DNA from: Candidatus Melainabacteria bacterium
Lineage (GTDB): Bacteria; Cyanobacteriota; Vampirovibrionia; Obscuribacterales; Obscuribacteraceae
DNA: 64,000 nucleotides
Assembly (NCBI GenBank): GCA_003242885.1
Contig: QKMZ01000015.1
Location: 269,568-333,567 of the forward strand
Reading direction: 5' to 3'
Part shown: piece after piece, positions 8,204-51,613 of the stretch
Layout: the number at the start of each line of letters is the position of its first letter
Numbering within the stretch: the stretch's first letter is position 1
Notes under the pieces: generated by a model
What the model was told of the DNA's origin: nothing
The model's input: the letters and a program-made list of their open reading frames with translations, nothing else
Database searches by the model: none
Made by a program: the position numbers and the translations under genes

Positions 8204-10360
8204 CTATGACTTATGGACAGATTTTGTCGCCACCAAAAGTTCGCCGGCGAGCCACAGTTTCACCAAATTGTCGAGAATGTTCTCAACGCGCACAGCGCCC
8301 TTCAGCACTGGAAAGTCTCTCGATTCGACGACCGGCAGTTTTTTCAAACCATGCTCACGCATCGTTGAAAGTGCCAGGCTTGTACTTTCATTCTGAGATA
8401 TGAAGATAGGCTCGGGGACCATGATGTCGCGGACGCAGACGCGCAAGCTGCGATCTTGAACAGCGAGTTCGATGGCGCGGAATAAATCCGAGCGTGAAAC
8501 GATACCTACTAATTGTTCGCTGTCGTTAACCACACAGATAAAGTCGAGCTTGTGAATATTGATCATTTCGATTGCTGTTTCTACCGCATCTGTGGGTCTT
8601 AGAGGCGGGTTAGTCATTGGTTCTACCAAGCAAGAAAGCGGAATCGTCTCCAATATTTCTTTAGCTTCGGGCAAGTTTTTCCAAATATTGGTCCGGCGTT
8701 TCATCGCCTTTGCTACTGCGTCTCTCAGTGGCGCCAGACATGAGGATATCTGCGTAAAAACGTTTCGTCCTAAGACTGTCACTTCAACATTGGAGCGAGC
8801 CCTAATTGATGCACTGCGGGCTCCGCTGTCTATCAATGCGCCTTCGCCGAAAAAGTCGCCAGGTCCGAGAATGGCAAGAATTTCTTCGCCGTCTGCTGCA
8901 ATACTGCCTTTTACGACTTCAACTTGTCCTTGCTGAATCACGTAAAACTCGGTAGCGGGATCACCTTCGTGGAAAATGTAATCGCCAGTAGGATGATAGG
9001 CTCGGCTCACGCGGCGCGAGCGATCCGCTTTCATGTGCGCCAGCGTGCGAGGAAAAACCAAGTCGCACATCCACTCAAGTCCAACTTTTATTTGTTGTGA
9101 GAATGACGGCAGCTTCATCAGATATACGCCGCGCCACACGAACCATGCGGGGAAACCACTGATTCGCAATCCCATTATTTCGGCAATGGCACTGCGCCCA
9201 CCGATCGAGCACATTGCTCCCATCATTTTGAATGAGAATGGTTGTGTCGGTTCGCCTTTCAGTCTGCGAATGACGTTGAGCGCGACTTGCGTACCTTGAC
9301 GCTCTGCAAATTGTGCAACAGGTGGAGAAAGTTTGCCGTCCTCTGCATTGATTACTGCGGCGCAATCTCCGATAGCCCAGGTGTGAGGAAATCCAGGCAA
9401 GCTCATGTCCGGCTCTGTTTTCAATCGACCGCGTTCTTTCGGCAAGTCTATGCGATTGATGACGGGCAAAGTGGTAGTACCGATGGTGCAAACGACGGTC
9501 GCTGCTTCCAGGACTGTTCCATCTTTCAAAATCACACCGTCTGGCGTTGCTGCTGCGGCCATGGCATTAAGAACCATCGACACGCCCGATTGTTTCATCT
9601 TGTGCTCTGCGAATGTTCTCAGCGAAAGACTGACCTCCGGCAAGATGTGATCGCCGGAATGAACGATAGTGACAGTAATGTCTTTCTCTTCGATGGTCGA
9701 GAAGAATTTGCGGCTCTTGCGCACCAGGTCGTTAATTTCGCCTGCGACTTCAACGCCTGAAAATCCTCCCCCGACAACGATGAAGGACAGGTAGAAGTGC
9801 TTCATTACTGGGTCTTCGCAGACTTCCGCCTTTTCAAGCATCTCCATGATGTGCGCTTGCAGTGCCAGCGCGTCTCCGACTGTTTTCAATGCAAACGCGT
9901 GATCGTCCATGCCTGGTATCAGCGCCAGGTTGGATGTGTTTCCGCAGCTTATGACAACTTGGTCATAAGCCATTTGGCGACGTTTTCCGTCATAGCCTTC
10001 GTACTCGACTACTTTATTGGCAATGTCGATCGAAAGAACGTCCTCTGTGCGGCACTTAACGCCGTGCAGAAGCTGCCTGAGTGGCGCTGCAACGTCTTTG
10101 GGCTGAACTGCGGCGCTTGCGACTTCCGCGAGCAGAGGATGGAAAACCATATGGTTTTCGCGATTGAAAAGCACAATCTCGTATTCGCTGGGCGAGAGGT
10201 GTTTCGTCAGCGTGCGAGCGCACTTAACTCCGGCAAATCCGCCGCCCAAGATGAGTATTCTTTTGCGACTCTTTTCTTCTGGCATACCTATATTTCGGGT
10301 CCTCGGGGGCGCGGTGTTCCGTTGTGCGGGCTTCCGGCTCGATGGGGTCGACGCGGTCAT
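8204..10360 (-). CDS. type II NADH dehydrogenase-like flavoprotein fused to a cyclic-nucleotide-binding domain and a CBS pair
   Basis: - Two Rossmann GxGxxG motifs (ILILGGGFAGV, FIVVGGGFSGVE) and WAIGDCA, as in NDH-2.
- Then FHEGDPATEFYVIQQG...GDFFGEGALIDSGARSASIRA, a cNMP phosphate-binding cassette.
- Then two CBS-like repeats.
- An alternative start Met is at 10285. Confidence 0.85.
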   Translation of the reverse strand: MTASTPSSRKPAQRNTAPPRTRNIGMPEEKSRKRILILGGGFAGVKCARTLTKHLSPSEYEIVLFNRENHMVFHPLLAEVASAAVQPKDVAAPLRQLLHGVKCRTEDVLSIDIANKVVEYEGYDGKRRQMAYDQVVISCGNTSNLALIPGMDDHAFALKTVGDALALQAHIMEMLEKAEVCEDPVMKHFYLSFIVVGGGFSGVEVAGEINDLVRKSRKFFSTIEEKDITVTIVHSGDHILPEVSLSLRTFAEHKMKQSGVSMVLNAMAAAATPDGVILKDGTVLEAATVVCTIGTTTLPVINRIDLPKERGRLKTEPDMSLPGFPHTWAIGDCAAVINAEDGKLSPPVAQFAERQGTQVALNVIRRLKGEPTQPFSFKMMGAMCSIGGRSAIAEIMGLRISGFPAWFVWRGVYLMKLPSFSQQIKVGLEWMCDLVFPRTLAHMKADRSRRVSRAYHPTGDYIFHEGDPATEFYVIQQGQVEVVKGSIAADGEEILAILGPGDFFGEGALIDSGARSASIRARSNVEVTVLGRNVFTQISSCLAPLRDAVAKAMKRRTNIWKNLPEAKEILETIPLSCLVEPMTNPPLRPTDAVETAIEMINIHKLDFICVVNDSEQLVGIVSRSDLFRAIELAVQDRSLRVCVRDIMVPEPIFISQNESTSLALSTMREHGLKKLPVVESRDFPVLKGAVRVENILDNLVKLWLAGELLVATKSVHKS

Positions 10361-16410: not shown

Positions 16411-17703
16411 TTAACTGACGACTTTGTCTTTCTTTGGTTCCCAGGTCGCTTGCTTCGTGGGCTGTACGGCAAGGTTGGAAACAGCAGGCAGGTCGTGAAT
16501 CGTCCTTTGGATTTGTCGTTTTGCTTGAGTCTTCCAACCGAATTTTTGGATGATTTCCGGCAAGCTCGAACCGCTCCATTGCCAGTGGTGTAGAGCAACG
16601 ATCGCTTGTTCTACTGACAGAGCGCCTTCATCGATCATTGCCTGGCAGCGCACCGCAATGTGCAGCGTGGCTTCGGATATTTGACCTGCGTTGAGAAGAA
16701 TTTCGTCAAACGGTTTGACCTTACGACCATCGTCGACAATCGCTCTTCTCAGAGCGTCGTCGCTGAGCAGTCCGGCGAGTTTGAGCAAGTCAACAAGTCC
16801 AATCAAGTTGGTTGTCTTGAACTGCGCTTTGCTGACTTCGCTCATGCAAGTTTCTGCAGTCCAACCGTGTTGGTGGATGAGGCCTAGTGCTTCGGATGCC
16901 TCTTCCGTGGTCATGTTTTCTGACCGTACCATCTCCTGCAAGCCCAGGGCTGCATCGAGAACGGCTTCGTTGATAAACCCTGATTGCATTAGAGCCTGTC
17001 CAATCAGCATATCGACCGACAGTGCGAATTCGAGGGCCGTGATCAAGTCGGTTTCGGAAACAACATCCGCCAAAACCAGCAGTTCGCCCAGGCGGATATT
17101 CGGTCTTTCCGGAAGTTTGTAACCGGCTGCCATGATCGCTGCGTCAAGGTTGAAGTCCTTGTCTTTTGCGCCTTTGAGGATGGTTACGGCATCGTCTCGC
17201 GCAATCTCTCCATCGCGAATGAGCGACTGCATTGTCAGTGCCGCTTGAACGACCGAGCTGCTGAGGAAGTTTTTCAAAACGAGAATGCGTCCCAGTGGCA
17301 AACCTAAGTGAGTACTGGTGTGCATTGCATCATCGACTTGTTTGCGCGAGATCAATTCTGCGCCGACTAGCAGGTCGCCCAGCTTGTTTGTGTTGTCGGT
17401 GACGTCTTCGAGTGCGCCCAGATATTCTAGAGAGTCGGTAAGACTCAATCTGCGAGCGGCTGCAACTTCAACTGCACGAACTGCTGTTTCCAGGGTGAGC
17501 AATTTGTCTCTCACCAACGATTGCGCAAGGATGGCGGCTTTGAGCGTGTCATTTCTAATGATGTCCAGCATCACCAGTACACGCCCAATGGGCAGCCCAC
17601 TTTGTCCGGACACCTTCATCGCGTTTGCGAGGTCCTCGACTGTGACGAGCTTGGCTCGTCTTAGGAGTTCGCCGATTAACATCGATTCGCCTGGTTTAAT
17701 CAT
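16411..17703 (-). CDS. protein made of four tandem MshEN/T2SSE_N-like helical repeats, with no ATPase domain
   Basis: 430 aa with four roughly 70-100-aa units:
- LIGELLRRAKLVTVEDLANAMKVSGQSGLPIGRVLVML...
- LGDLLVGAELISRKQVDDAMHTSTHLGLPLGRILVLK...
- LGELLVLADVVSETDLITALEF...
- LVDLLKLAGLLSDDALRRAI... Confidence 0.75.
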   Translation of the reverse strand: MIKPGESMLIGELLRRAKLVTVEDLANAMKVSGQSGLPIGRVLVMLDIIRNDTLKAAILAQSLVRDKLLTLETAVRAVEVAAARRLSLTDSLEYLGALEDVTDNTNKLGDLLVGAELISRKQVDDAMHTSTHLGLPLGRILVLKNFLSSSVVQAALTMQSLIRDGEIARDDAVTILKGAKDKDFNLDAAIMAAGYKLPERPNIRLGELLVLADVVSETDLITALEFALSVDMLIGQALMQSGFINEAVLDAALGLQEMVRSENMTTEEASEALGLIHQHGWTAETCMSEVSKAQFKTTNLIGLVDLLKLAGLLSDDALRRAIVDDGRKVKPFDEILLNAGQISEATLHIAVRCQAMIDEGALSVEQAIVALHHWQWSGSSLPEIIQKFGWKTQAKRQIQRTIHDLPAVSNLAVQPTKQATWEPKKDKVVS

Positions 17704-18563: not shown

Positions 18564-19010
18564 CTATAGCTCGATGGCGCTTGTTTTCACGATATATCGC
18601 AAACTTTTGCAAACCTCTTCCATCTGTTCTTCCTTTAAGCCTGGCTCGACCGGATAAGACATAATGCCGCGTCCACGAAAGTACCGGGGCAGGCTATCGG
18701 TGCGCGGGATTACGTGAACATGAAAATGCGGCACGGCTTCGCCCAGGGAAAACGTATAAATGCGCTCTGCGCCGGTCAGTTTTCGAATCAGTGACATGAC
18801 CTGCTTGAGCAATCCGCCGTAACCAGTCGCCTCCTCATCCGTCGCCTCTGTAAGGTCGAGGATGTGACGTCTTGCTTCGATGACAAGATAGCCAAGAATG
18901 TTGGTTTCGCGCGAATGCCTAACAACAAAGCTCTTGGTCTCGAGAATGATGTCTTGAGTGGGTTGCTCTTCTTGTCGTTTGCAAATCAAGCACTGGGCGT
19001 CTTTGGTCAT
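18564..19010 (-). CDS. HIT (histidine triad) family hydrolase
   Basis: Histidine triad HFHVHVIP. N-terminal CxxC-like CLIC. Confidence 0.85.
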   Translation of the reverse strand: MTKDAQCLICKRQEEQPTQDIILETKSFVVRHSRETNILGYLVIEARRHILDLTEATDEEATGYGGLLKQVMSLIRKLTGAERIYTFSLGEAVPHFHVHVIPRTDSLPRYFRGRGIMSYPVEPGLKEEQMEEVCKSLRYIVKTSAIEL

Positions 19011-19092
19011 CTGGGCATCCTTTTCGGGGCAGCGGAGACTCTATAATATGGGCTGCGCGACATATGTTAGATCGTCGGACAGAAGAAAAGAT

Positions 19093-20850
19093 ATGCTTAT
19101 TCGTTATCAAGAAGTTCGTTTGCCCAGGGTTTTCACACTGATACTACTGGCGGTGCTCTTCTGGACTGCATCCGGAAATCTGTCTGCATTTGCCGACGAA
19201 ATTACAAGCTTCGATGCCACCATTGAAGTTCAACCTGATGCATCGCTCGATGTTCGCGAAGATCTTACGGTAAAATTCGATACCCCAAACCGGCATGGCA
19301 TCAAGCGTTTTATTCCCGTAGTCTACGACCGCAAGCACAACAATTACACGATTGATCTTAAGTTGGTGGGAGTAGCGGGAACGGATGGGAAGTATGTTCC
19401 ATTCAAGACCAATCGGCAGGGCCGAGACTTTTTCATTATCATCGGCGATCCAAAGAAATCGGTTATGGGATTGCAGCAGTACCACATCCATTACACGGTT
19501 CGGCGCGCCATCAACTTCTTCGATGATGCTCCGGAAATTTACTGGAACGTGACCGGCAACGAATCACATATGCCGATTGATAAAGTGGTGGCGCGGGTGA
19601 TGTTTCCACCGGTTGCCCAGAAAGGCGAAATTCTAGCTAAAGCCTTTATCGGAGAAGAAGGTTCTACAAAAACTTCACCTTATTCTCTGGAGTTAGGAAG
19701 CGCTACTTTTACTTGTGGAAAGCTCGAACCTGGCGAAGGTTTGACAGTCGTGGTCGGCTTGCCTGCAGGACACGTCAACAAGCCTACTGAGTGGCAGGAG
19801 TTTCTCTACCTCGCTGCTGACTGGTGGCCGCTTGTGGTTTTGCCTGCGATTACACTTTCGGTATGTTTCAACATGTGGTGGTTTTTGGGGCGTGATGCTG
19901 GGAAGCGTCAGGCTGTTGCCGTCGACTGGGAACCGCCTAAAGACTTGTCTCCGGCTGAAGTCGGCACTCTTGTAGACGAGACATGCGACCTATCCGATAT
20001 GGTTTCGACGGTTGTTGATTTGGCTGCCAGAGGATATTTGACGATACGCGAGTTTAAGACTGAGTCGCTTTTCTTCTTGCGCAACAAGGACTACGAATTC
20101 ACCAGGCTGCCTCACAATGAGCGGCAGGACAAGTCTCCGCTCAATTCATTCGAGCAATTATTTCTCAATGCGCTGTTCAAGAAAGGTTACTTTCAGACAG
20201 ATACGGTGCGCCTTTCTGACTTGAAATATAAGTTCTACCTTGAGATGAGGCAGATCGAAAAAGGTATTTATCAATCGCTTATCAACAAAGGAATGTTTTT
20301 GCAAAGTCCTGAAGAGGTGAGACAGAGCTGGATTTGCATCGGTGTCATTATGTTCATTCTCTCGTTTGTTTTAGGGCCCATTCAATCGTCTTACGGGCTA
20401 GGAATGATATTTTCCTCGATTATCGTTTTTTGCTTCTCACGGACCATGCCCGCGCGCACGCGTAAGGGGTGCGAGGCACTTTATCAATGTCTCGGATTTC
20501 AGCGATTCGTCAAACTGGCTGAGAAGGAAAGAATCAAAAAGCTTGTCACGGATGATCCGACAATCTTCGGGCGTTTGCTGCCTTATGCCATGGTCTTGGG
20601 TGCAGCAGACCAGTGGGCAGAAGCCTTTAAAGATCTAGTTGTCTCGCCGCCCGACTGGTACATCTCGAGTGGCTCGAGATTTCAAACTTACTCATTCGTG
20701 CGTGACATTGGAGACAGCACACGCACAATGGGGCAAACATTTACCTCCATGCCATCATCATCATCTTCCTCGGCCGGCTCGGGTGGCAGCGGATTTAGTG
20801 GTGGTTCTTCCGGCGGGGGCTTTGGCGGTGGGGGAACAAGCAGTTGGTGA
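19093..20850 (+). CDS. DUF2207 family membrane protein (paralog 1)
   Basis: - Signal-like N-terminus.
- ITSFDATIEVQPDASLDVREDLTVKFDTPNRHGIKRFIP.
- Internal TM helices.
- Gly-rich C-terminal tail ending GGGFGGGGTSSW.
- Clear paralog of 58926..60740.
- Start taken at ATG 19093 (ORF opens at 18958). Confidence 0.8.
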   Translation: MLIRYQEVRLPRVFTLILLAVLFWTASGNLSAFADEITSFDATIEVQPDASLDVREDLTVKFDTPNRHGIKRFIPVVYDRKHNNYTIDLKLVGVAGTDGKYVPFKTNRQGRDFFIIIGDPKKSVMGLQQYHIHYTVRRAINFFDDAPEIYWNVTGNESHMPIDKVVARVMFPPVAQKGEILAKAFIGEEGSTKTSPYSLELGSATFTCGKLEPGEGLTVVVGLPAGHVNKPTEWQEFLYLAADWWPLVVLPAITLSVCFNMWWFLGRDAGKRQAVAVDWEPPKDLSPAEVGTLVDETCDLSDMVSTVVDLAARGYLTIREFKTESLFFLRNKDYEFTRLPHNERQDKSPLNSFEQLFLNALFKKGYFQTDTVRLSDLKYKFYLEMRQIEKGIYQSLINKGMFLQSPEEVRQSWICIGVIMFILSFVLGPIQSSYGLGMIFSSIIVFCFSRTMPARTRKGCEALYQCLGFQRFVKLAEKERIKKLVTDDPTIFGRLLPYAMVLGAADQWAEAFKDLVVSPPDWYISSGSRFQTYSFVRDIGDSTRTMGQTFTSMPSSSSSSAGSGGSGFSGGSSGGGFGGGGTSSW

Positions 20851-22689: not shown

Positions 22690-22717
22690 TCGATATAAAC
22701 GTAGCAGCATATGATTT

Positions 22718-22747
22718 AAACGGGCGGCAGATTGTCGCCCGTTTTTG
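22718..22747 (+). terminator. intrinsic terminator after the TPR gene
   Basis: Perfect 9-bp stem AAACGGGCG/CGCCCGTTT with a 9-nt loop, running into a T-tract, 29 nt after the stop codon. Confidence 0.65.
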
Positions 22748-22874
22748 ATTGACATGCGCACGTACTGCGTCCATGCAAAATGTAAAACGGGTCCGAGCTA
22801 CGCGTAAAACGCGTCCTATTTGCGCGCGCCAACCCATCCGAGCCACACGCGAACACGTTTTACAGGTCATGCAC

Positions 22875-24947
22875 TTACGGTGTCGCTGTGCTCTTCTCCG
22901 GGTTTGGCTGATGGCTCAGGATGATTCGATTGCGCCCTTGTTTTTTCGCTTCATACAGACGTGCGTCAGCCGTCTGAATCAGCTCGTAAATCGACTCTCC
23001 ATCCTCCGGGTAGCTGGCCATCCCGCCGGAGAAGCTGCATTTGAATTCTTGCCCATCGTCACCGGTGAAAACCATCTCTCGGAATTCTGCAAGCACTCTA
23101 TTGATAGCAGCGTGCATGGTTTCTTTTGATTCACGTCTGAATCCCAGAATGAATTCTTCTCCGCCCCAACGACCGCGTAGATCTTCTACTCTAAAACGCC
23201 GTGCCAGAAGCTGACCCAGCCCGGTGAGAACTTTGTCGCCAGCAAGGTGTCCGTAGGTGTCGTTGACATTTTTGAACTTGTCCACATCGAGCAGACAAAT
23301 CGTAAAAACTGATTTGTTGCGTTGCCCGTCCGCGAGCAGTTGAGCGAGCTGCTCTGAGAATGCTCTTCTCAAGAGCAATCCCGTGATCGTGTCTTTGTCT
23401 GATCTGTCTTTCAGCATACGCGCGCGATCGAGTCTGACCTTGACGCGAGTAAGCAGCTCTTCGTTGACCACCGGCTTGGGAAGGTAATCATCGCCGCCTG
23501 AGCGGAATGCTTCCAATCTGTTTTCCACACCGGTTTGTCCTGTGAGGAAGACAATCGGCAGATCTTGCCAGCGCGGAATCTGGCGCAGCATGCGGCAAAC
23601 CTCGAAGCCTGTGATACCAGGCATCATGACGTCGAGCAGAAGCAATTCCGGCGGGAAATCTTGCATTACTTCCAAAATTTTGTTCGGATCTGTGAGAATG
23701 CGCACGACTACGCCCTCATTGCGAAGAATGAGCGCAATGGTGTTGGCAAAAAACTCGTCGTCATCGACGAGCAAAATGCGCGGTCTTCCACCGGTGCGAA
23801 TTGCTACCAGGTGTTCGACAGCTTTCTCCAAAGAGTCAGATTCGAGCGGTTTATCTAAGTAAAGCGACGCGCCTGCGTGTGCTGCTTCAACACGATCTTT
23901 GACGAGCGCGTTGCCGGAAATAAATGCTAATGGAAGGGTTTCATATCCGGGCAAATTTCTGAGTTCTCGTGCCAGTTTGAATGACTCATCAGGCACTTCA
24001 GCATGCACATTTATCAGGGCCGCATCCAAGGGCAGGATGCAAGCGCGATCTAGTGCTTCTCTAAAAGTTTTGGCACGAACGATCTCCACGAGCCTTTGTT
24101 TGCCCAGTTCTTCAACGATATCCAAAAATCCGTCGTCCGAATCGACGACAAGAATTCTGGCCATCGATGCTGGCGCTTCCTCGCTTTGTCCTTCCTCTTC
24201 TTTTGCATTGACTACTGAAGCGACATCCTGAGCCTCTTTTTCTCCGAGAATTTTGGCGTCAGCCAATTTGCGATCTACGTCAGCCCAGATGGACATTTGC
24301 TCGCTGGCTGGCTTTTCATGCATGGTGGCAGCAGCGTGCTCAATGAAGAGCATACATTCGCTTACTTGTCTGAATCCCAGAGAGCCGCCTGTACCCTTGA
24401 TTTTGTGCGCTTGCGAACGAACTTCCGCCAATAGGGAAGCATCTTCCGGATCTTCTTTTGACTTGTTGATTGCAACTGCAAGGTCTTCCAGTTTTGATGG
24501 CAACATGCGCGCGTATTTTGAAACGAGCGCTAAGAACATCGTCTCGAAATCTTTGAGCTTACTGGACTGCGGGTCTTCGGGGCTGAGCTTGCCTTCCAAT
24601 TGAGCGCCGAAAACGAAAGGAATCACTGGCTTGTTAACTGCAAGCACGACTCCTAGTTCGCGCTCTAGGCGTTCGCGATTGGCGTGCAATTCTGGCTGTG
24701 ACGCCGCGATAAAAGTAACCGGAATCTTGTTGCCGGTTGCTCGCAAAGCTGTGAGCCAATCAAAGCAATTGTCGTCCGGCAAAGGTGCGCCAAGGAGCAC
24801 CATATCCAGATTCTCTTTCTGGATGACGCCTTTGCCTTCTTTGCCGCTCTCGACCTGAATAACCTTATGACCACGCCCTTCAAGCACAGGCACAATCAGC
24901 TTGCAGAATGATTTATCCTGTTCGACTAGAAGGATGTTTTTTCCCAT
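22875..24947 (-). CDS. multi-domain response regulator / diguanylate cyclase (pseudoREC-Hpt-pseudoREC-REC-GGDEF)
   Basis: - REC1 has the acceptor position changed (DMVLLGAPLP).
- Hpt motif AHKIKGTGGSLGF.
- REC2 is also changed (LDAALINVHAEVP).
- REC3 is canonical (LLLLDVMMPGITG...LPKPV).
- GGDEF domain with GGEEF, and an RVED I-site five residues upstream. Confidence 0.85.
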   Translation of the reverse strand: MGKNILLVEQDKSFCKLIVPVLEGRGHKVIQVESGKEGKGVIQKENLDMVLLGAPLPDDNCFDWLTALRATGNKIPVTFIAASQPELHANRERLERELGVVLAVNKPVIPFVFGAQLEGKLSPEDPQSSKLKDFETMFLALVSKYARMLPSKLEDLAVAINKSKEDPEDASLLAEVRSQAHKIKGTGGSLGFRQVSECMLFIEHAAATMHEKPASEQMSIWADVDRKLADAKILGEKEAQDVASVVNAKEEEGQSEEAPASMARILVVDSDDGFLDIVEELGKQRLVEIVRAKTFREALDRACILPLDAALINVHAEVPDESFKLARELRNLPGYETLPLAFISGNALVKDRVEAAHAGASLYLDKPLESDSLEKAVEHLVAIRTGGRPRILLVDDDEFFANTIALILRNEGVVVRILTDPNKILEVMQDFPPELLLLDVMMPGITGFEVCRMLRQIPRWQDLPIVFLTGQTGVENRLEAFRSGGDDYLPKPVVNEELLTRVKVRLDRARMLKDRSDKDTITGLLLRRAFSEQLAQLLADGQRNKSVFTICLLDVDKFKNVNDTYGHLAGDKVLTGLGQLLARRFRVEDLRGRWGGEEFILGFRRESKETMHAAINRVLAEFREMVFTGDDGQEFKCSFSGGMASYPEDGESIYELIQTADARLYEAKKQGRNRIILSHQPNPEKSTATP

Positions 24948-25063
24948 GAATACCGGGCCCTTGCGCGCTTCCCTGTCTCAAAGTATACCCAGCTTGGCTC
25001 CATCCTCTACGAAACGTCGAACAAGCGCTCAAAAAGACAGGTTTATTAACCGGAGAATGTTTC

Positions 25064-26026
25064 TTATCCAACTTGGCTAATGCTGATTGTTAACTGGTTT
25101 CGAGCCGGCACACCACGTACTTGAACCTTGACAGGCTGATAAAATCCCCAGGGCTCCCCGGCGTATCCGACAGGAGCGACGACCGTAATTTCGGTAGGTG
25201 AAACGCTCACGATTTGGCATTGCAGCGGACCAACATAGACAGAAATGTCCGACTGATTTGGTGAAAAACCTTCCCCGTAGATTGTGAATTGACTGCCCGG
25301 CGGCACCCAGCTGGCGCTCAGGCTGCTGAGATAGGGATAGCTAGCGACAGTCGCTGCCAGTGTCCCTGCTTCCATTCCGCCCACTGATACGCTCACCTTT
25401 GAGCTGCTGCTATCGGCGTAATCGGGCACTTGCACGATCAATTTGTCCGATGACGCTGACAGGCAGCGCGCTCGGTGGGTGCCGAACATGACGACGTTAG
25501 CATCCGGATCGCTGGAAAAATTGCTGCCGAGAATGGTGACCGAATGACCTGGGCTGACCTGGCTCGGATTGAGGCTGGTGACTGTCGGCTGATTTGTCGT
25601 CAGCTTCCAGCTGAATGTGGAACCGCGCTGACCTCCCGCTGTGATCAACATTTGATTTCCGCCCCAAGTCAGCTCACCTGTAACATCTACACTCAAGCTG
25701 CGCTTTCCGCCGAATTCATTTTCAGATACGAAGTGCATCGTCGGTGATGCGATGCGCAACCATTTGAATCCAGGCGCGCTGGCAGAGCCATTGTAGTAAG
25801 TCAGTGTCAGCTGAAGTTTTTCTTGTCCCTTTTGCAAGTTGATCGTTTCTGTGATGCGCTGAATCTGATTGTTGGGTGCAACCATTGGCTGTGACTGCGC
25901 AAGCACAACTTCATCTGCATGCGCGGCACATGGGAAAAGTGTGGAGACGAATAACGCCATTGCGGGCAGCGCCTTGATAGCAATACTTCGATATATAGAA
26001 AACTTAAAGCACGTCGATAAGTTCAA
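25064..26026 (-). CDS. secreted protein with two IPT/TIG-like domains
   Basis: Signal peptide ending AHA-DE. Also PTVTSLNPSQVSPGHSVTILGSNFSS...VMFG and LSSLSASWVPPGSQFTIYGEGFSP...VYVG. Confidence 0.6.
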   Translation of the reverse strand: MNLSTCFKFSIYRSIAIKALPAMALFVSTLFPCAAHADEVVLAQSQPMVAPNNQIQRITETINLQKGQEKLQLTLTYYNGSASAPGFKWLRIASPTMHFVSENEFGGKRSLSVDVTGELTWGGNQMLITAGGQRGSTFSWKLTTNQPTVTSLNPSQVSPGHSVTILGSNFSSDPDANVVMFGTHRARCLSASSDKLIVQVPDYADSSSSKVSVSVGGMEAGTLAATVASYPYLSSLSASWVPPGSQFTIYGEGFSPNQSDISVYVGPLQCQIVSVSPTEITVVAPVGYAGEPWGFYQPVKVQVRGVPARNQLTISISQVG

Positions 26027-26045
26027 AATTTCAACCCCATTTGAT

Positions 26046-26759
26046 TCACTCTTTTAGCCTTTTCCAATTTGATTTTGCAGCTTTTTGAAAGTTGCGTACA
26101 TCTGCTTTTGATAAGCCGCTTATCTCTTCGCCGAATTCATCGTTACTCGCTTTTTCCACCGCGAAATAATGGTAAAGCAAGTAGCGAATCATTGACTGTG
26201 CTTCCGGTGGAACGGTCAGATCCAGCTGCGCGCGCTTGAGTTCTGCCTCATCGACAAAACCATTTTTGTTAACGTCCAGTTTGTCGAAGTGCGCAAGAAA
26301 TAATTCTTCTGCATTGGCAGGACCGAGTATGTCGGAAATATTTCGCAGAAGCTCCAGAGCTCGTCTTTCTGCTTCGGGATGATTGCCCGCACAGCCCATG
26401 GTTTCTGCTTCTATGGCAAGCGCTTGTTCTATTACTTCCTTTGCTTCCGGCAATGCATTGTGCCGTGCGTAAAATCCTGCCAGCTGCGTGCGTGTGAGAA
26501 ATGGCAGTGCCAGTAATTCTCTGTAAGCGGAAAGCAGCTCTGGCAGCGCGTCTTCCGGTAGATGCTTGTTGGCAGGAGAAACACCATTGCGCGATCGATC
26601 CAAGGCAGTGTTGAAGTCACGCATGTATTCCGCACGCGGCAAGCTGTCGGCGGCTTGAACAGCGCGCCTGTACTCGGCTTCCGCTTCTTGAAGATCCTTT
26701 TTCAATTCCAATTGTTTTGCGTTATTGGAATGAATATATGGGTTTGGCACATCTTCCAC
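26046..26759 (-). CDS. helical protein with a canonical EF-hand Ca-binding loop
   Basis: DVNKNGFVDEAE fits the 12-residue EF-hand loop (D-x-N-x-N-G-x-V-x-x-x-E). The rest is helical and TPR-like. Confidence 0.55.
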   Translation of the reverse strand: MEDVPNPYIHSNNAKQLELKKDLQEAEAEYRRAVQAADSLPRAEYMRDFNTALDRSRNGVSPANKHLPEDALPELLSAYRELLALPFLTRTQLAGFYARHNALPEAKEVIEQALAIEAETMGCAGNHPEAERRALELLRNISDILGPANAEELFLAHFDKLDVNKNGFVDEAELKRAQLDLTVPPEAQSMIRYLLYHYFAVEKASNDEFGEEISGLSKADVRNFQKAAKSNWKRLKE

Positions 26760-26819
26760 GCCGCCGGTCCCTCTCGATCAACCTGTAATTGACTGCGCCG
26801 GTGATTCCAGTTTTTGGGC

Positions 26820-28295
26820 TCAGCGTTTGCGTGGATTGGGCCAATTCAACTCAGCGCAAGCATCGTCGAAGCTGGTCCTCATACGGCTGCAGTACTGCAG
26901 TGCAATAGAAATTTGTTCTATTTTCATTACGCCATCGCGAAGCATTGGCACGCAGATGATGGCTGCTTCAAAGGTTTTGTCATCGAGTTTGTTGGCAGCG
27001 CCCAAGATTTTGGAAATGTCACCGCCATGTTTTTTGCGAACTTCGTTGGCTGTTTGAATGTCATTGTCAGTCAAAACTCCAGAGCGTACGAGCAAGTCGA
27101 GTGCGTCTTTTACAGACACCATTGCCTGCGCGGGGGCGCCACCACTTTGCGGCGCGCCGCCTCCGCCTGAAGATCCGGGGGCACCGTCTGCTAGTTCTTG
27201 CATAGCTACAGTAATGAATTGCTCTATAGTTTTTCCTTTGTTGTGATATCGGGCCAGCACGCGCGCTGCATCGCGCGCTGTCAGCTGTTTTTCCTCAACA
27301 AGGTCTTGCATTCTTATGGCTGCATCGAGCGATTGGCTGTTGAGCAAACCTGATTCAAGAAGAAGATTGTTGAGCGTGACATCAGTTCGTTTTGAGATTA
27401 ATCCCATATCGATGGGCATTGGACCTGGCCCGCTGGAAGGTGCCGGAGGCGGCGCTGGTGCGGGATAGCCGGGCTGGGGCGGTGGATATCCGGGTTGCGG
27501 AGGCGGATATCCAGGCTGCATTTGCGGATAGCCCGGCGGTTGCATTTGTGGTGCCGGATAGCCTGGCTGGGGGGGCGGATAGCCCGGTTGGGGCGGGGGA
27601 TAGCCTGGTGCCGGCGGCATGCCCGGATACTGTCCTGCCGGAGGCATACCAGGTTGCATCGGATATCCCGGCTGTGGCGGGTATCCTGGTTGCGGAGGCA
27701 TTGGTGGCATGGGCGGTGCCATTTGAGGCATCGGTTGCGGCACCGGAGGTGGTGGCGGAGCAGGAGGAGGCTCAGGCCTTGGCAGTGGATCCGGATATAC
27801 CGAAGACTGCGCCGGCATGCCGCTGTGAGTGCTTCTAGAAAGACTGTCGGTGACGCGTTGCTTCCAAATATCGTCCGGTTTTTTAACTTCTTCTTGTGCT
27901 TGAGCGGCAAGTGCCTCCGGGCTCGGTCTCAATTCTTCCGGAATAAATCCGCTTGATACTGGGGCCGCGCTGCCTTGACTCGTAGACATGATAATCATCT
28001 CGAGTACGAAATCGAGATCAGAGGGCGGAAATCCTTGGCTAAACAACATTGCATTGTCGCCGCCCGCTTCGTCATAAAGTGTCCAGACCGGGAAATCGCC
28101 ACCTTTTTCCCACAAAACCATAAGTAAGAAATTTCGGCCGACACCTGACCACGGCAATTCGATCGTGGTTCCCCGCCTGCGCTCGCACTCGTCAAACATA
28201 GTGCGAACCAATTTCATATTCGGCTGCTGCGGTTCGTGCGGCAGCCTCATGTTTTTGGGCGGCTCTTCCTTCTGCTGTGGTTTAGGCTTAAACAT
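26820..28295 (-). CDS. unknown N-domain + P/G/Y/Q-rich spacer + MshEN/T2SSE_N-like repeats (paralog A)
   Basis: 491 aa and a paralog of 49886..51607 at both ends. The C-terminal repeats include LNNLLLESGLLNSQSLDAAIRMQ and LVRSGVLTDNDIQTANEVRKKHGGDISKILGAAN. Confidence 0.75.
   Translation of the reverse strand: MFKPKPQQKEEPPKNMRLPHEPQQPNMKLVRTMFDECERRRGTTIELPWSGVGRNFLLMVLWEKGGDFPVWTLYDEAGGDNAMLFSQGFPPSDLDFVLEMIIMSTSQGSAAPVSSGFIPEELRPSPEALAAQAQEEVKKPDDIWKQRVTDSLSRSTHSGMPAQSSVYPDPLPRPEPPPAPPPPPVPQPMPQMAPPMPPMPPQPGYPPQPGYPMQPGMPPAGQYPGMPPAPGYPPPQPGYPPPQPGYPAPQMQPPGYPQMQPGYPPPQPGYPPPQPGYPAPAPPPAPSSGPGPMPIDMGLISKRTDVTLNNLLLESGLLNSQSLDAAIRMQDLVEEKQLTARDAARVLARYHNKGKTIEQFITVAMQELADGAPGSSGGGGAPQSGGAPAQAMVSVKDALDLLVRSGVLTDNDIQTANEVRKKHGGDISKILGAANKLDDKTFEAAIICVPMLRDGVMKIEQISIALQYCSRMRTSFDDACAELNWPNPRKR
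27414..27797 (-). repeat. coding low-complexity tandem repeat (PQPGYPP units)
   Basis: Residues about 167-294 of the 26820..28295 product are almost only P, G, Y, Q and M. This region also spawns long spurious ORFs in other frames. Confidence 0.8.
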
Positions 28296-28583
28296 AGGAA
28301 ATTTCCAAGAACCAGTTACTTATTTTAAGTACCCCTATACGGAGACTTAGTCTCAAAATAATCGCACACAGGCAGATTAATTGGTTGAGATTCCATCACC
28401 CTTTTGGGTAACTGCGCAGCGTTTCGAGCGCCTTAATAGCGCGCCTTTAAGTTTTCTTCCTGGACGTATAAACGTCACTGGCGCTCATTTTAGCTCTGTC
28501 ACGATGGAATTTTTGGGCGATGTAACCTTTCGAACACGTCTGCGTCCTTTATCGGACATCTGCGATTACATCAAACCGGCTTA

Positions 28584-29942
28584 TCAAGGGGCTTCGAAAT
28601 GTCGGTGCAATCCACTCCAGCAATCAATGTAATCGCTTTGCAAAATTCCGCCGGTCATTGCGAATTCTGTAGGCCTGTATACCAGGGAGCTTTCAAACAT
28701 GAAAGCCAGGGTGTTTTCCATTTTTTGAGGCTTCAATTCAATATTCGAAGCTTTCTCGAAAGTTGCGGCATCTGGTCCATGCGCCGACATTTGGTTATGA
28801 AGGCTGCCGCCGCCCGCGACGAAGCCTTCTTCTTTAGCATCGTAAACGCCATAAATGAGACCCATGTATTCGCTCATGCAGTTGCGATGGTAGTAGGGCG
28901 GGCGGAACGTTTTCTCTGCAACCAACCAGCGCGGAGGAAAGATGACGAAGTCTACATTGGCTGTGCCGGGGATTTCGGAAGGCGAGGTCAATACAGTGAA
29001 TATAGACGGGTCGCTGTGGTCGAAAGTGACCGTATTGACTGCGTTAAAGGTCGCCAAGTCGTATTTGTAGGGGTAATAGTTACCGTGCCATGCAACAACA
29101 TCCAATGGAGAATGCTCCATTTCTGCAGTAAACAACTTTCCTTGATATTTGGCGATCAACGTGAGCGGTCGCTCGATGTCTTCGTACGCGGCATGAGGTG
29201 CCAGAAAGTCTCTGGGATTAGCCAATCCGTTTGCGCCGATCGGTCCGAGATCGGGCAGTTTTAGTGCCGGTCCGTAATTCTCTAGAATGTAACCATCTGC
29301 GGTGCCATCCGGAAGGTCGACTTTGAATTTCACTCCTCTCGGAATGACTGCAATTTCTCCAGGCGCCAGTCCGATGGTACCGAATTCGGTGCCAAGCATT
29401 AATCGGCCGCCGCGCGGAACGATCAACAATTCACCGTCCGCGTTGTAGAAAAACGAATCAGTCATTGACTGATTGGCAGAATACAAATGCACGGCGGAGC
29501 CTCGCACACTCGCCGAATCACCATTGCCAGCAATGGTGATTATGCCTTGGACGAAATTTTTCTTTTCTTTGAGAGCCGGCAGTGGATTCCAGCGCAATTG
29601 CTCTGGGCTGATCCATTTTTCACAGTCGAAAGGGCGGCTTTCTATCAAACCTTTGTCGAAAACTTTGAATTTCGAATGCAAAACAGAAGGACGAATTCTG
29701 TACAACCAGCTGCGCTGATTCTCATGTCTCGGAGCGGTGAAAGCAGTGCCGCTCAGTTGCTCTGCGTAAAGGCCAAGGGGCGCCTTTTGCGGCGAATTTT
29801 GCCCGACAGGAAGGGCGCCGGTTTCAGCTTCCGAACTATGGTGATTTGCAAAACCGCTTAGATACTGCAAGCCTTGTTTTTGGTCGTGCATCACCGAATT
29901 CTCTGTTTCTTTAGTACGGGCAGCCTTTCCTGTAGCGGACAA
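28584..29942 (-). CDS. hmgA: homogentisate 1,2-dioxygenase
   Basis: 452 aa with full-length resemblance to HmgA, for example [36 protein letters not shown] and [16 protein letters not shown] later start at Met18 is possible. Confidence 0.9.
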
Positions 29943-29980
29943 AGTCTTTCTCCAAGTGTCGTGTTGTGCCGAATGCTTAA

Positions 29981-30340
29981 CTACTTCGCAAAAATTGCGC
30001 GTGCTTTGGCGTCCATCTTATCTGCTTCCGGTCCGCGTCCAGCGGCACGTAGCATTTTTGCATAATTGTCGTAAATCGGGATCAATTCCTGACACGAAGG
30101 TCCTTTTACCCGAATCAAAAACTCAACGGCTTCTTTGTACATTGGCTCTGCATCAGCATATTTGCCTTGTTGACGGTAAGCATTGGCAAGTGCCGATTTG
30201 CTTTGAGCGATTTTTGGCTCGTTTGGGCTCATTGCTTCAGCTTCTTTGATAGCCAGTTTGAACTGTGCTTCAGCATCCAAAGGTTTTCCTGCCGACAATG
30301 CTTGCTGTCCGGCGATGTTGTAGCGCTCCCAAGTCGACAT
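29981..30340 (-). CDS. small TPR protein
   Basis: 119 aa, three TPR-like units ([27 protein letters not shown]...). Confidence 0.65.
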
Positions 30341-45747: not shown

Positions 45748-47055
45748 GTGGCATCGGTACCGCATATAATATCCCATGTCTTTATGAGGAATCTCAGCTT
45801 GCGGCATCCTAAAGCAAGAATCATTCTGTTTTTGTCTGTTGTGCCGCTACTCTTGGCGTTCTTATTCCTTGGCAGTAAGACATACAACAAGTTTGGTTCT
45901 TTGGACTCTAAACACCGGACAGGGTGGAGTCAAAAGGATCTCATTATCACCTACAGCTGTTCTCCACCGCCGGAAGAACCTTATGTAAAGGCGATTGCGG
46001 ATCAAGGCTACAACCTCTTGCCGATTGCGGAGGATGCTCTGCCATTTGCTGAAAAGTACAACGTCAAGGTTTTGCTTCAGCATGGTCTCTTCAATGTCAA
46101 AACGATGGAAAGTCCAATCGAACTTGAGCAGCTAAATGCGCTGATTGATCGAGTTAAAGATAATCCTGCGCTTGAAGGCTATTACATCTTCGACGAACCT
46201 CAGGAAGTTGAATTTCCGAAGCTTGCAAAACTTGTTCGACACATTAAAGCGCGAGATCCCCACCATTTTTGCTTCGTCAATTTGCTGCCAATATTTGGTG
46301 TCAGAACAAAGAAAATCAAAGACCCGTCGCTGATCTACAAAGATTACATCAATGAATACATCAGACAGTTTAAGCCAGATTTGCTTAGTTATGACTACTA
46401 CACATTTGTCAAATACTCGAATTCACCAGCTGCAGGACTCTACTTTATTCACCTTCGGCTGATGCGGGAATGTGCAAGGAAGGCCGAATTGCCATTTATG
46501 AACATCATTCAGGCGTCGCAATTCCAGGTGAGAGATTGGGATATGCCGACTCCTGCACAGCTGCGGTGGCAAGTTTATACTTCGCTCGCTTACGGTGCCA
46601 GGGCTATCAATTATTTTCTGTACTGGGGACCGAAGTCGTTTGCAGGGATGTATCGTGATGGTGTTGCAATCCCGTTGGTCGACGCTGCCGCTCTCTTAAA
46701 CAAAGAGATGAAAGCGTTGAGCTCGACGCTTATGTCGATGGAGTCACTCTACATATTTCAAACTGACCCACTACCACCGGGTGCGTTGCCGATGCCATTT
46801 GGATGCCCGTTACAAATTACCTCACCTGGCCAGTTTGTAGTTGGAGTTTTTGGCGAAGACCGGAAAGAGAAGGCGTTCATGATCGTCAATCGTGATTTTT
46901 CAAAGTCCGTTGTTGCGAGAGTAAAAGTGCTTGGAGCCGAGGCGCTTAGTGAATTGCAGCGCAGCGACTCTAGCTGGAAGACAGTCAACCCGAATCAAAA
47001 TGGGGAATTTGAGATTTTACTTGAACCCGGCGATGGACGGTTCTTTAAGTTCTAG
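45748..47055 (+). CDS. hypothetical protein, possibly a TIM-barrel glycoside-hydrolase-like enzyme
   Basis: 435 aa. N-terminal TM or signal segment. YYIFDEP, FVNLLP and INYFLYWGP resemble clan GH-A-like patterns, but I cannot assign a family. GTG start. Confidence 0.5.
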   Translation: MASVPHIISHVFMRNLSLRHPKARIILFLSVVPLLLAFLFLGSKTYNKFGSLDSKHRTGWSQKDLIITYSCSPPPEEPYVKAIADQGYNLLPIAEDALPFAEKYNVKVLLQHGLFNVKTMESPIELEQLNALIDRVKDNPALEGYYIFDEPQEVEFPKLAKLVRHIKARDPHHFCFVNLLPIFGVRTKKIKDPSLIYKDYINEYIRQFKPDLLSYDYYTFVKYSNSPAAGLYFIHLRLMRECARKAELPFMNIIQASQFQVRDWDMPTPAQLRWQVYTSLAYGARAINYFLYWGPKSFAGMYRDGVAIPLVDAAALLNKEMKALSSTLMSMESLYIFQTDPLPPGALPMPFGCPLQITSPGQFVVGVFGEDRKEKAFMIVNRDFSKSVVARVKVLGAEALSELQRSDSSWKTVNPNQNGEFEILLEPGDGRFFKF

Positions 47056-49675: not shown

Positions 49676-49885
49676 GCTGTTTTCTCAATCGTTTTTTTGC
49701 CTTCGGTCTCTATCGACAATATCATGTAGCATTTTTACCTAACCTGCAAAGCCCGGTTAGGTGGTTTGAATGAGGCTCCACGGGTCTGATAAAGCTGGAA
49801 TTGCTTACTAAATAAGATATATAGGTTGATCACTGTTTTCAGGCGGGCACAATTATTCTGAATATTAAATAGTGGGACCTCGTTG

Positions 49886-51607
49886 ATGTACAAACCGAAG
49901 CGCCAGGTTCGCCTGGACCCGATGAAATATCCGCCCCGTATGAGTGACCTGAGGAATCTTCTTCAGGAGGCCACCGTAAATAAGGGTTGCACAGTTGAAT
50001 TGCCGTTTGCTGCGATGAACAGCAAGTGGAGTTTGACCGTCAGGTCTGAAATCGGCGGTACACAGGAGCCCATGTGGACACTTTATGAAGGCGAAGGCTC
50101 CAGTTCGCGAGTCGTGTGGAGCACGCCGTTTGATGACGTTGAGCTTTTGCAGGACGTACTGCATTTGTCTCTGCCTCAAGACCTTCAGAAAGTAGCGATG
50201 CCGCCCGAGGTCGCTGCCGCGCCAGCCAAGTCCGAGCCCGAGCCTAATGGCCAGCCCGACGCCCCGCACTCTTTTGCCGCGTTCGATAAGTCGAGCGCGC
50301 TTATGAAAGAATCGCATACGAATATGCCTGCAGCACAGCAGCCGCAAGCGCCTGGACAACAGCCAGTCAATCCGCAACAACAGCCGAATCAACAGCAGCA
50401 GATGCCACCGGAGCAGCAGATGCCGCCCGGATATCCGCAACCAGTTCCCCCTGGTTATCCACAGCAAATGCCACCTGGCTATCCGCAGCAAATGCCGCCT
50501 GGTTATGGATATCCGCCTGGTTATCCGCAGCAAATGCCGCCTGGATATGGTTATCCGCCGGGCTACGGCTACCCGCCTGGCTATGGATATCCGCCTGGTT
50601 ATCCGCAGCAGATGCCTCCGGGATATGGCTATCCACCTGGATACGGCTACCCTCCGGGCTATCCCCAGCAGATGCCGCCTGGTTATCCGCCGCAACAAAT
50701 GCCACCAGGGTATCCACAACAACCCGGCTATCCTCAACCGCAAGATCCTTCTCAGCCTGCTCAACAAGGGCAGAACGCTGCGTCTGGAACTTACCCTGCA
50801 CACCAAAATCCTTATGCATCTGGAAGTTATCCTGCGGTCGAGCCCTACGGATCTGGCTCTTATCCTGCGATTGGTGGCGGTGGAAAAGATTTGATCGAGA
50901 AGCGTCCCAATTTCTTGTTGGGTCATTTCCTCGTTGAGGCAGGCTTGATTCCAGAACCAACTCTTGATGCGGCTTTGCAGTTGCAGGGGATGGTTAAGGC
51001 TGGTGCGCTCAATCCGAAACAAGCTGGTGAAGCGGTTCGCCGCGCGCACACACGTGGTGGCAAAGTAGACACAAATACTTTTACTGCAACGCCTGCTAAG
51101 AAAGTAGATTCTTCGGACATCCAGGGAACCGCGCCACCGCTTGGTCAAGTTCTCATTGAAGCCGGTCTGATAAGCGTTCCTGTTCTCAAAGCAGCTTTGA
51201 ATTTGCAGGAAGTCGTTCGTACTGGTGCATTGACTCGTGAAGAAGCACTGGAGGCTTTCATTCGAGAGCATTATGGTGTCGACGCAAAAAGCGCGCGCAA
51301 AGCCATCGCTAAGAATTCCATGGATTCGAAAGTTATCGGCTTGCTTGTAAAAGCTGGCTTGCTCACAGAGCAAGACGTGCAAACTGCTCAGACAGTGAAG
51401 AAGAAGCACGGCGGCGATGTGGTCAAAATTCTGACTGCGGCCGGCAAACTCGATAAGGTCTTGCTTGGCGCTGCGAATCAGTGCCATGATCTGATTGAGC
51501 AAAAACGATTGAAGGTTGAACAAGCAATCATCGCGTTGCACTATTGCGAGAGAATGCGAGTAAGTTTTGACGATGCGGTTGAAGAGATGGGATGGGAAAA
51601 GCCATAG
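49886..51607 (+). CDS. unknown N-domain + P/G/Y/Q-rich spacer + MshEN/T2SSE_N-like repeats (paralog B)
   Basis: Begins MYKPKRQ (paralog A begins MFKPKPQ). Shares the N-domain, (PPGYGY/PPGYPQQM)n repeats and C-terminal repeats, and ends SFDDAVEEMGWEKP. Confidence 0.8.
   Translation: MYKPKRQVRLDPMKYPPRMSDLRNLLQEATVNKGCTVELPFAAMNSKWSLTVRSEIGGTQEPMWTLYEGEGSSSRVVWSTPFDDVELLQDVLHLSLPQDLQKVAMPPEVAAAPAKSEPEPNGQPDAPHSFAAFDKSSALMKESHTNMPAAQQPQAPGQQPVNPQQQPNQQQQMPPEQQMPPGYPQPVPPGYPQQMPPGYPQQMPPGYGYPPGYPQQMPPGYGYPPGYGYPPGYGYPPGYPQQMPPGYGYPPGYGYPPGYPQQMPPGYPPQQMPPGYPQQPGYPQPQDPSQPAQQGQNAASGTYPAHQNPYASGSYPAVEPYGSGSYPAIGGGGKDLIEKRPNFLLGHFLVEAGLIPEPTLDAALQLQGMVKAGALNPKQAGEAVRRAHTRGGKVDTNTFTATPAKKVDSSDIQGTAPPLGQVLIEAGLISVPVLKAALNLQEVVRTGALTREEALEAFIREHYGVDAKSARKAIAKNSMDSKVIGLLVKAGLLTEQDVQTAQTVKKKHGGDVVKILTAAGKLDKVLLGAANQCHDLIEQKRLKVEQAIIALHYCERMRVSFDDAVEEMGWEKP
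50423..50737 (+). repeat. coding tandem repeat (18-nt PPGYGY and 24-nt PPGYPQQM units)
   Basis: Directly visible reiteration of ccgcctggttat(ggatat)/ccgcagcaaatg units. Confidence 0.85.
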
Positions 51608-51613
51608 CCGCTG

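Follow-up and report, generated by a model that had tools for sequence, protein, structure and literature searches.

We analysed a 64,000-nucleotide stretch of the Candidatus Melainabacteria bacterium contig QKMZ01000015.1 (hereafter the window, meaning the whole of that stretch) and focused on gene A, whose product combines a new N-terminal domain (the N-domain), a long uncharged spacer and C-terminal helical modules related to MshEN_N, a four-helix unit that binds cyclic di-GMP (c-di-GMP). Two further genes in the window, paralogs B and C, encode related proteins (Table 1). The original prediction, made from the sequence alone, had proposed this three-part layout for the product of gene A, and its reading frame, the composition of the spacer and the domains were all confirmed. 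The exact protein is encoded on 7 public contigs with identical synteny, orthologs of gene A occur in ~46 Obscuribacterales genomes, and intact orthologs of the family were found in ~60 species-level genomes. The full-length architecture is intact in ~55 genes, and every complete gene in the family has all three parts. Because of these intact orthologs and a low non-synonymous divergence (dN) with saturated synonymous divergence (dS), we regard gene A as real and rejected the possibility of a chance open reading frame (ORF) in repetitive DNA. Within the window's clade, dN was 0.02-0.2 in the N-domain, the spacer and both modules; dS was saturated in most comparisons, such that the corresponding ω values are upper-bound impressions only. 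On this sequence evidence, purifying selection appears to act on all three parts of protein A. A membrane or secreted protein was ruled out, as protein A has no transmembrane segment (maximum KD19 = 1.07) and no signal peptide. Separately, the ORFs at 27398..27910 (−), 27495..27956 (+) and 49865..52000 (−) are composition artefacts and not genes: they run through the repetitive spacer DNA of both genes, out of frame or on the opposite strand, reach up to 711 residues and are rich in Arg, Leu and Ile.

Table 1 Parts of protein A, its two paralogs and the genes adjoining gene A in the window
Feature	Residues	Position	Strand	Description
Gene A	1-491	26820..28295	−	ATG-to-stop ORF, 491 aa, three-part cytoplasmic protein
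N-domain core	15-107	27975..28253	−	β-α-β4-α fold (AlphaFold2)
Connector	108-166	27798..27974	−	Ser/Ala/Glu-rich, pLDDT <50 from residue 108
Spacer	167-294	27414..27797	−	Uncharged Pro/Gly/Tyr/Gln/Met, nine PGYP units
Module 1	296-370	27186..27410	−	Helical, one lone degenerate 24-residue MshEN-type motif
Module 1 motif	307-330	27306..27377	−	TLNNLLLESGLLNSQSLDAAIRMQ; followed by a non-motif hairpin
Linker	371-394	27114..27185	−	Gly/Ala/Pro/Ser, between modules 1 and 2, pLDDT <50
Module 2 and cap	395-491	26823..27113	−	24-5-24 frame, extra hairpin, cap ending MRTSFDDACAELNWPNP
Module 2, 24-5-24 frame	397-449	26949..27107	−	Motif I 397-420, KKHGG 421-425, motif II 426-449
Paralog B		49886..51607	+	573 aa: N-domain, spacer, two lone half-sites (LLG..., PLG...), degenerate 24-5-24 module, cap
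Paralog C		16411..17703	−	430 aa: three full 53-residue MshEN_N sites, one degenerate module, cap
Linked cyclase		22875..24947	−	REC-Hpt-REC-REC-GGDEF diguanylate cyclase (Pfam)
Inserted gene		25064..26026	−	Two TIG/IPT domains (Pfam TIG E = 5e-25), hydrophobic N-terminus
Inserted gene		26046..26759	−	237 aa, one EF-hand-like loop (DVNKNGFVDEAE); Pfam EF-hand E ~4e-4, below cut-offs
HgmA		28584..29942	−	Homogentisate 1,2-dioxygenase, directly upstream of gene A

The C-terminal modules of protein A are securely identified as divergent descendants of the MshEN_N four-helix c-di-GMP-binding unit. In an AlphaFold2 model, residues 295-491 were all-helical, with predicted local distance difference test (pLDDT) values of 57-73 in module 1 and of 85-91 in module 2, the latter with an MshEN-like fold. 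Residues 400-440 aligned to positions 4-44 of NF053729 (E = 2.9e-5), an MshE-related NCBIfam model of the c-di-GMP_motif that spans 53 positions, has a curated whole-protein cut-off of 38 bits and matched 9 of 10 family members. As whole proteins, C (108.9 bits over four stretches) and B (46.7 bits) passed this cut-off, and A (23.8 bits) failed it. Because the cut-off is meant for whole proteins, we also scored each module alone. Modules 1-3 of C then reached 35.8, 41.0 and 36.7 bits over essentially the full profile length, and its module 4 reached 23.0 bits (positions 4-47). The first two motifs of B scored 24.2 bits each over half of the profile only and its module 3 scored 17.4 bits (positions 5-41), with 14.6 bits (positions 4-25) and 19.0 bits (positions 4-45) for modules 1 and 2 of A, respectively.

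Profile and structure comparisons gave the same assignment. With hhalign, a 10-sequence alignment of the last module of A- and B-type proteins matched the three full sites of C in register over 86 columns (98.2%, E = 5.8e-14). Among natural proteins in PDB, the module-2 profile matched Thermus thermophilus PilF best (6f8l residues 15-80, E = 0.0017; 9g1w, E = 0.24). The most probable natural Foldseek match of module 2 was MshE (5htl, probability 0.99, root-mean-square deviation 2.5 Å over 54 columns), with GSPII-B and GSPII-A of PilF also matched; nothing in this search reached E ≤ 0.001, as expected for a helical unit of 55 residues. The proposed likeness to the N-terminal domain of GspE, PilB and MshE ATPases therefore stood as homology, although A itself remained below the 38-bit cut-off. 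Pfam T2SSE_N (PF05157), the profile that had been put forward as the test of this likeness, gave no match at E ≤ 1 for A or B and none at E ≤ 0.01 for C, and a Pfam-A scan of the three proteins returned nothing beyond noise below threshold (for example FumaraseC_C, GntR and COQ9_N). The α/β subdomain MshEN_C is absent from A in the AlphaFold2 model, with the protein ending 42 residues past motif II.

This family of modules is best known from the N-termini of PilB, GspE and MshE secretion ATPases, and gene A could in principle be a decayed gene of that kind, minus its ATPase domain. This explanation is effectively refuted: the three-part ORF is intact in ~55 genomes with dN/dS well below 1, the N-domain and spacer are foreign to PilB, GspE and MshE ATPases, MshEN_C is missing, and MshEN proteins without an ATPase domain are a class already established. 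As originally predicted, no ATPase-like sequence follows downstream, and no secretion ATPase domain was found with Pfam in A, B, C or the other window ORFs scanned. The accompanying suggestion that three ATPase-less genes in one window represent an expanded lineage-specific family rather than a decayed pilus gene is borne out by the conserved architecture and purifying selection.

We then asked whether the c-di-GMP site is kept. A full MshEN site consists of two motifs and a 5-residue spacer, each 24-residue motif holding half of a c-di-GMP molecule (PMC5013675). Each motif calls for Arg (or Lys, Pro or Asn) at position 1 and Gln at position 24, and for Gly at position 3 (PMC5013675, PMC12002112). 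Replacing Gly3 of either motif in Vibrio cholerae MshE (G11L, G40I) abolishes binding, and XpsE is cited as a naturally degenerate domain that does not bind (PMC5013675). In GSPII-A of PilF, Ala at Gly3 lowers affinity 10-30-fold and Ser at Arg1 abolishes binding (PMC12002112). The lone motif of module 1 in protein A fits 8 of 11 specified positions: Gln24 is kept, but Arg1 is Thr, Gly3 is Asn (Asn309) and Leu21 is Ile, so the earlier claim that this repeat fits the motif except at Gly3 did not hold. In module 2, positions 1, 3 and 24 are Asp, Leu399 and Arg in motif I and Asp, Ser428 and Val in motif II.

These replacements are a family trait. All 62 relatives examined have the 24-5-24 frame and a V[RK]KKHGGD signature with an invariant KKHGG. 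Across the same relatives, position 3 of this module is Phe, Leu or Ile in motif I and Val, Ser, Thr or Ile in motif II, and never Gly; Arg1 is replaced in both motifs in all of them and Gln24 in nearly all. The module-1 half-site still reads h-L/I-G...Q in 46 of the 62 members, all outside the window's clade (an Obscuribacter example is LLGTLLREAGLISEPTLEAALKLQ). The window's clade specifically lost Gly3 of module 1, with TLN (ten times), TFN, TLA and DVA in its place. As a strict regular expression, the relaxed published motif had 0 matches in A and its A-type orthologs, but it also misses the genuine sites of C; because it proved too brittle, we relied on in-register residue tables and per-module profile scores.

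As Arg1 and the Gly3 positions of both motifs are replaced, canonical c-di-GMP binding by A is unlikely, and any binding would need to be non-canonical. The binding that the original prediction implied is likewise doubtful, judging from a lone half-site without Arg1 or Gly3 and a full frame without either Gly3. One could still suppose that A is itself a receptor, possibly with half-sites that pair across a dimer or with a basic VRKKHGGD loop that contacts phosphates. We consider this unlikely. Its modules are homologous to MshEN_N, but they score 14.6 and 19.0 bits against ~36-41 bits for genuine sites, and their best natural PDB match is the region of PilF with GSPII-A, the one non-binding GSPII domain of that protein. 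Each 24-residue motif binds half a c-di-GMP in MshE (PMC5013675), and orthologs from other genera keep a near-canonical half-site (LLGxxLxEAGLIxxxTLEAALKLQ); in A, however, none of the three motif slots has Gly3 (they have Asn, Leu and Ser) or Arg1 (Thr, Asp and Asp), only one has Gln24, and changes at Gly3 and Arg1 are those that cut or abolish affinity in MshE and PilF GSPII-A. A dedicated cyclase adjoins the gene and the other partners of the N-domain are receptor-type domains (both described below), but the relaxed published motif matches no A-type ortholog. Motif-level resemblance to MshEN does not predict binding, and the copy in A fails at experimentally essential residues.

The N-domain, an α/β domain of ~95 residues, folded confidently in AlphaFold2 from a shallow alignment of six sequences (mean pLDDT 81, core >90), with strands at residues 15-17, 44-50, 55-61, 70-75 and 82-88 and helices at 27-39 and 91-105; the connector that follows aligns poorly across the family. 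That this domain is shared with B, as had been predicted, is formally significant (E = 1.7e-10, 31% identity over 108 residues), and the remark that it contains no recognizable motif also stood, the domain being conserved and without a relative in Pfam, PDB or BFVD. No Pfam family matched, also when members were scanned individually, and a sequence profile search of PDB returned only a chance-level match to sucrose phosphorylase. With Foldseek, nothing reached E ≤ 0.001 in PDB (best E = 0.07, template modelling (TM) score ≤0.42, Whirly/PUR-like β4-α folds) or among the viral structures of BFVD (best E = 3e-3, TM score 0.39). None of these matches, the one to sucrose phosphorylase included, was accepted as a relationship. 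A word-index homolog search returned nothing for the N-domain alone and only 4 fragments for a 23-sequence profile. An exhaustive hidden Markov model (HMM) search of 1.84 billion representatives, by comparison, placed the domain in 444 clusters at E ≤ 1e-3 and in 186 at E ≤ 1e-10.

This survey revealed two recurrent architectures. Among the best 150 of the 444 clusters, the N-domain lies nearly always at the extreme N-terminus. The C-region of the family is also present in 66 of 93 N-domain representatives of at least 380 residues. The other architecture, accounting for 36 of the best 150, joins the N-domain to DUF4388/PATAN and GGDEF domains, or to GGDEF directly. The active-site slot of these GGDEF domains is dead: GG[D/E]EF occurs in 0 of 36, the slot reading ADHQF, ETFDY, ETFKY and similar, and RxxD is found exactly five residues upstream in ~30 of the 36. 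A dead GGDEF slot with a retained RxxD is the signature of I-site receptor domains of the PopA/PelD type. In Synechocystis, PATAN serves as the output domain and binds PilB1 and PilC, two proteins of the pilus motor (bioRxiv 10.1101/2021.06.11.447907). Collectively, the N-domain represents a new domain that is found again and again in two independent architectures, each with c-di-GMP receptor-type modules; because its sister architectures carry dead GGDEF and PATAN domains, we place it among c-di-GMP effector proteins. Named members all have Melainabacteria/Obscuribacterales or generic cyanobacterial labels of metagenome-assembled genomes (MAGs), apart from one Leptolyngbya label that is probably mis-binned. 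They are annotated as 'hypothetical protein', 'DUF4388 domain-containing protein' and, once, 'diguanylate cyclase (GGDEF)-like protein', and one N-domain-GGDEF gene (P0015) sits at a contig end. Our literature searches found no paper describing the family.

The spacer, described originally as almost pure Pro/Gly/Tyr/Gln/Met, consists of these five residues to 88%: its 128 residues include 64 Pro, 14 Gln, 14 Gly, 11 Tyr and 10 Met, with 3 charged residues, and the underlying DNA contains 21-bp (7-residue) tandem repeats. As one of the three parts of the architecture, this disordered region measures ~130-190 residues. In 58 relatives, the spacer is 125-226 residues long (median 194) and near-uncharged, with its composition kept (Pro 26, Gln 15, Gly 13, Tyr 7 and Met 7%). 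The sequence itself is not conserved order-wide, and dN against close orthologs is 0.02-0.09. The linker between modules 1 and 2 is fast-evolving, with a dN of 0.11-0.76 that is 1.2- to 16-fold (median ~4-fold) that of the flanking modules.

A long, uncharged spacer with Tyr and Met in a Pro/Gln/Gly background, its length and composition conserved order-wide and its sequence constrained within the clade, would also suit a self-assembling structural hub, that is, a tether, polar matrix or condensate former without any role in c-di-GMP signalling. The helical C-terminus would then serve for oligomerization only and the N-domain for client binding, with the MshEN ancestry and the neighbouring cyclase as historical accidents. 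The layout of N-domain, disordered region and helical bundle would resemble that of bacterial hub proteins of the PopZ type, the ligand-binding residues are degenerate and the modules are like designed helical repeat proteins. We nevertheless judge such a hub fairly unlikely, as the N-domain is joined repeatedly, in independent architectures, to c-di-GMP receptor-type domains, a tight adjacency to the cyclase persists over 38-97% sequence divergence, and B and C keep better c-di-GMP motifs.

The two paralogs differ in how much of the architecture and of the site they retain. The C-region of A matches that of B at E = 1.7e-31 and that of C at E = 1.8e-13, and A and B share their last module and cap with C, which is without N-domain and spacer. 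The two lone half-sites of B are near-canonical. Because the peptide MYKPKRQVRL is conserved in its orthologs, we assigned the start of B to the ATG at 49886 and not to the TTG at 49883. Paralog C matches the MshEN region of NfrB, and a phmmer search of PDB with it returned PilF, PilB and MshE; C is probably the c-di-GMP binder of the trio. HMMs of the N-domain and the C-region found no copy beyond A, B and C among the six-frame ORFs of the window. A C-type gene lies within ±10 kb at many A-type loci. In Obscuribacter, B-type and A-type genes lie within ~5 kb of each other at two loci (L027 and L031), with a C-type gene ~7 kb further downstream at L031, and this proximity suggests an ancestral cluster.

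The surroundings of B-type genes also recur. In 18 loci, an NAD-dependent epimerase-like gene follows the B-type gene at a distance of 7 bp (in the window, the pair spans 49886..52450 (+)). A divergent HAMP-PAS histidine kinase gene precedes it in 12 loci; the copy in the window, at 47045..49675 (−), contains a low-complexity insertion close to the ATPase domain (STPRAGATPRAGAT...SDSDSNN).

To assess the distribution of the family, we scanned one genome per GTDB species with its two most conserved peptides. This survey yielded 60 loci, mostly labelled as Obscuribacterales, Melainabacteria or Cyanobacteria MAGs and some only as generic 'bacterium'; two or three were under other labels and are probably mis-binned. 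The best match was in MAG 17Bon1m (97% identity). From these labels, the family appears to be specific to the Obscuribacterales/Melainabacteria and expanded there. In 42 of 46 A-type loci, an intact GGEEF cyclase gene lies downstream of the A-type gene on the same strand, at a distance of ≤300 bp in 28 and typically of 13-31 bp; one gene intervenes in three loci and two in the window's clade. The cyclase of the window is intact, with GGEEF at residue 595 and RVED (the RxxD I-site) five residues upstream, at canonical spacing. These arrangements establish that the A-type gene is ancestrally adjacent, on the same strand, to an intact multi-receiver diguanylate cyclase.

The two genes that separate A from the cyclase in the window have narrow distributions. 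The TIG/IPT gene occurs in 9 loci of the window's clade only, and the EF-hand-like gene, with a canonical-looking loop, is found only in that clade plus three further loci (L037, L039 and L041). It adjoins the gene of a PxYP-rich protein. The eukaryotic penta-EF-hand protein ALG-2 binds PPYPxnYP motifs. A promoter and terminator scan of 22700..30200 gave counts not above those of shuffled sequence and no intergenic terminator.

Several other genes around gene A and elsewhere in the window merit description. In 42 loci order-wide, the HgmA gene immediately precedes the A-type gene in the same orientation, with gaps of 55-300 bp. Two DUF2207 membrane proteins are encoded in the window (18958..20850 (+), and 58038..58718 (−) with 58926..60740 (+)), one of which belongs to the conserved synteny of the A locus (30 loci) and the other of which is paired divergently with a LemA gene. 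The gene at 8204..10360 (−) encodes a 718-residue type-II NADH dehydrogenase (Pyr_redox_2 and NDH2_C) with a cyclic-nucleotide-binding domain and two CBS domains, an unusual and apparently nucleotide-regulated respiratory enzyme. The window is rich in signalling genes, including three Ser/Thr kinases (one fused to tetratricopeptide repeats (TPRs) and one to FHA), two PAS histidine kinases and two OmpR-type regulators, and it further holds leucine-rich repeat (LRR) and many TPR proteins.

We tentatively favour, with slightly less than even confidence, a role for A as an Obscuribacterales-specific cytoplasmic adaptor or scaffold in a local c-di-GMP signalling module. Gene A would probably be co-transcribed with the adjacent cyclase. 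The spacer would serve as a flexible tether or else self-associate as a low-complexity region, and the C-terminal modules would be the sensing or assembly end. A would more plausibly work through protein-protein contacts, for example with B and C, which have better sites, or with the cyclase, and its invariant VRKKHGGD loop may form a new site. The N-domain could be the docking or output end, as it is nearly always N-terminal among the best 150 clusters and is paired elsewhere with PATAN and with dead GGDEF domains that retain only the I-site. Its recurrence with receptor-type modules in two architectures makes it a good candidate for a new docking or output domain of effectors.

Several observations weigh against an adaptor or scaffold of this kind. 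The modules of A, reported as the weakest among the nine window modules scored by NF053729, score low and fail the published motif, so that A's own tie to c-di-GMP is indirect, and they also resemble generic designed helical repeat proteins. The docking or output role of the N-domain is one that we purely infer. In the window's clade, two unrelated genes part A from the cyclase, and HgmA, LRR and TPR genes are equally conserved nearby, suggesting that synteny within a single order can be inherited and not functional. All family members are proteins of uncultured MAGs.

A bolder proposal starts from the lone half-sites, one in most A-type and two in B-type proteins, and takes them as a new receptor design in which two half-sites close round one c-di-GMP. 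We think this very unlikely. Pairing would occur in trans, in a homodimer or heterodimer, or in cis in B, with c-di-GMP supplied by the adjacent cyclase. The nucleotide would drive scaffold assembly on the Tyr/Met-studded Pro/Gln/Gly spacer, and the role of the N-domain would be to bring in clients, for instance pilus-motor regulators of the PATAN type. The proteins of the window's clade, in which Gly3 was lost, would be a ligand-independent derivative.

Receptors are the least complete part of the c-di-GMP second-messenger parts list, and to our knowledge nothing is known of c-di-GMP signalling in the Melainabacteria/Vampirovibrionia, the non-photosynthetic sister lineage of Cyanobacteria. 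Within a single 64-kb window, MshEN_N modules form a series that starts with the full sites of C, continues with lone half-sites (in B and most orthologs of A) and ends with the fully degenerate frames of A, a series useful for defining the true requirements of the motif. The conserved cyclase-effector gene pair makes the proposed role directly testable in vitro.

ATPase-less MshEN proteins are themselves an established class with an NCBI model, of which paralog C is an ordinary member: fusions of MshEN to REC, HD-GYP, CheA and kinases, as well as (MshEN_N)2 proteins, have been described (Wang et al. 2016, PMC5013675). New here are the family of the N-domain, a three-part layout that combines lone half-sites with an invariant KKHGG loop, and a conserved gene pairing with a cyclase in a phylum that had not been studied. 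Paralog C clearly belongs to the stand-alone or multi-copy MshEN_N proteins captured by NF053729, and its last module and cap are also present in A and B. A, by contrast, falls below the cut-off of the model, has a degenerate half-site and frame, and includes two parts absent from this class, the N-domain and the spacer.

Compared with V. cholerae MshE (5HTL, PMC5013675), module 2 of A has the same 24+5+24 frame of helical hairpins. Unlike MshE, however, A is without MshEN_C and an ATPase domain, has Gly3, Arg1 and Gln24 replaced in both motifs, and adds a hairpin and a conserved cap; the 5-residue spacer, non-conserved in MshEN, is an invariant KKHGG in A. Of the natural proteins in PDB, the module-2 profile matches the GSPII-A region of T. 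thermophilus PilF (9G1W, PMC12002112) most closely. GSPII-A deviates at only a few positions, keeps its C-subdomain and sits in a pilus ATPase, whereas the module of A has diverged much further and belongs to a protein that has a disordered spacer and no ATPase domain.

Two further systems resemble A in their partners. E. coli NfrB is an MshEN-containing glycosyltransferase under local control by a dedicated cyclase, DgcJ (PMC8669469). As in DgcJ-NfrB, where an MshEN-type module is paired with one cyclase, A-type genes lie directly upstream of one conserved cyclase, a likeness at the level of genes only; the site of NfrB is canonical, and A lacks an enzymatic output domain. Receptors with dead, I-site-retaining GGDEF domains and PATAN proteins are related to A through the N-domain, whose sister architectures carry both modules. 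A itself has neither, so that its relation to these receptors lies in the N-domain family and not in its C-terminus.

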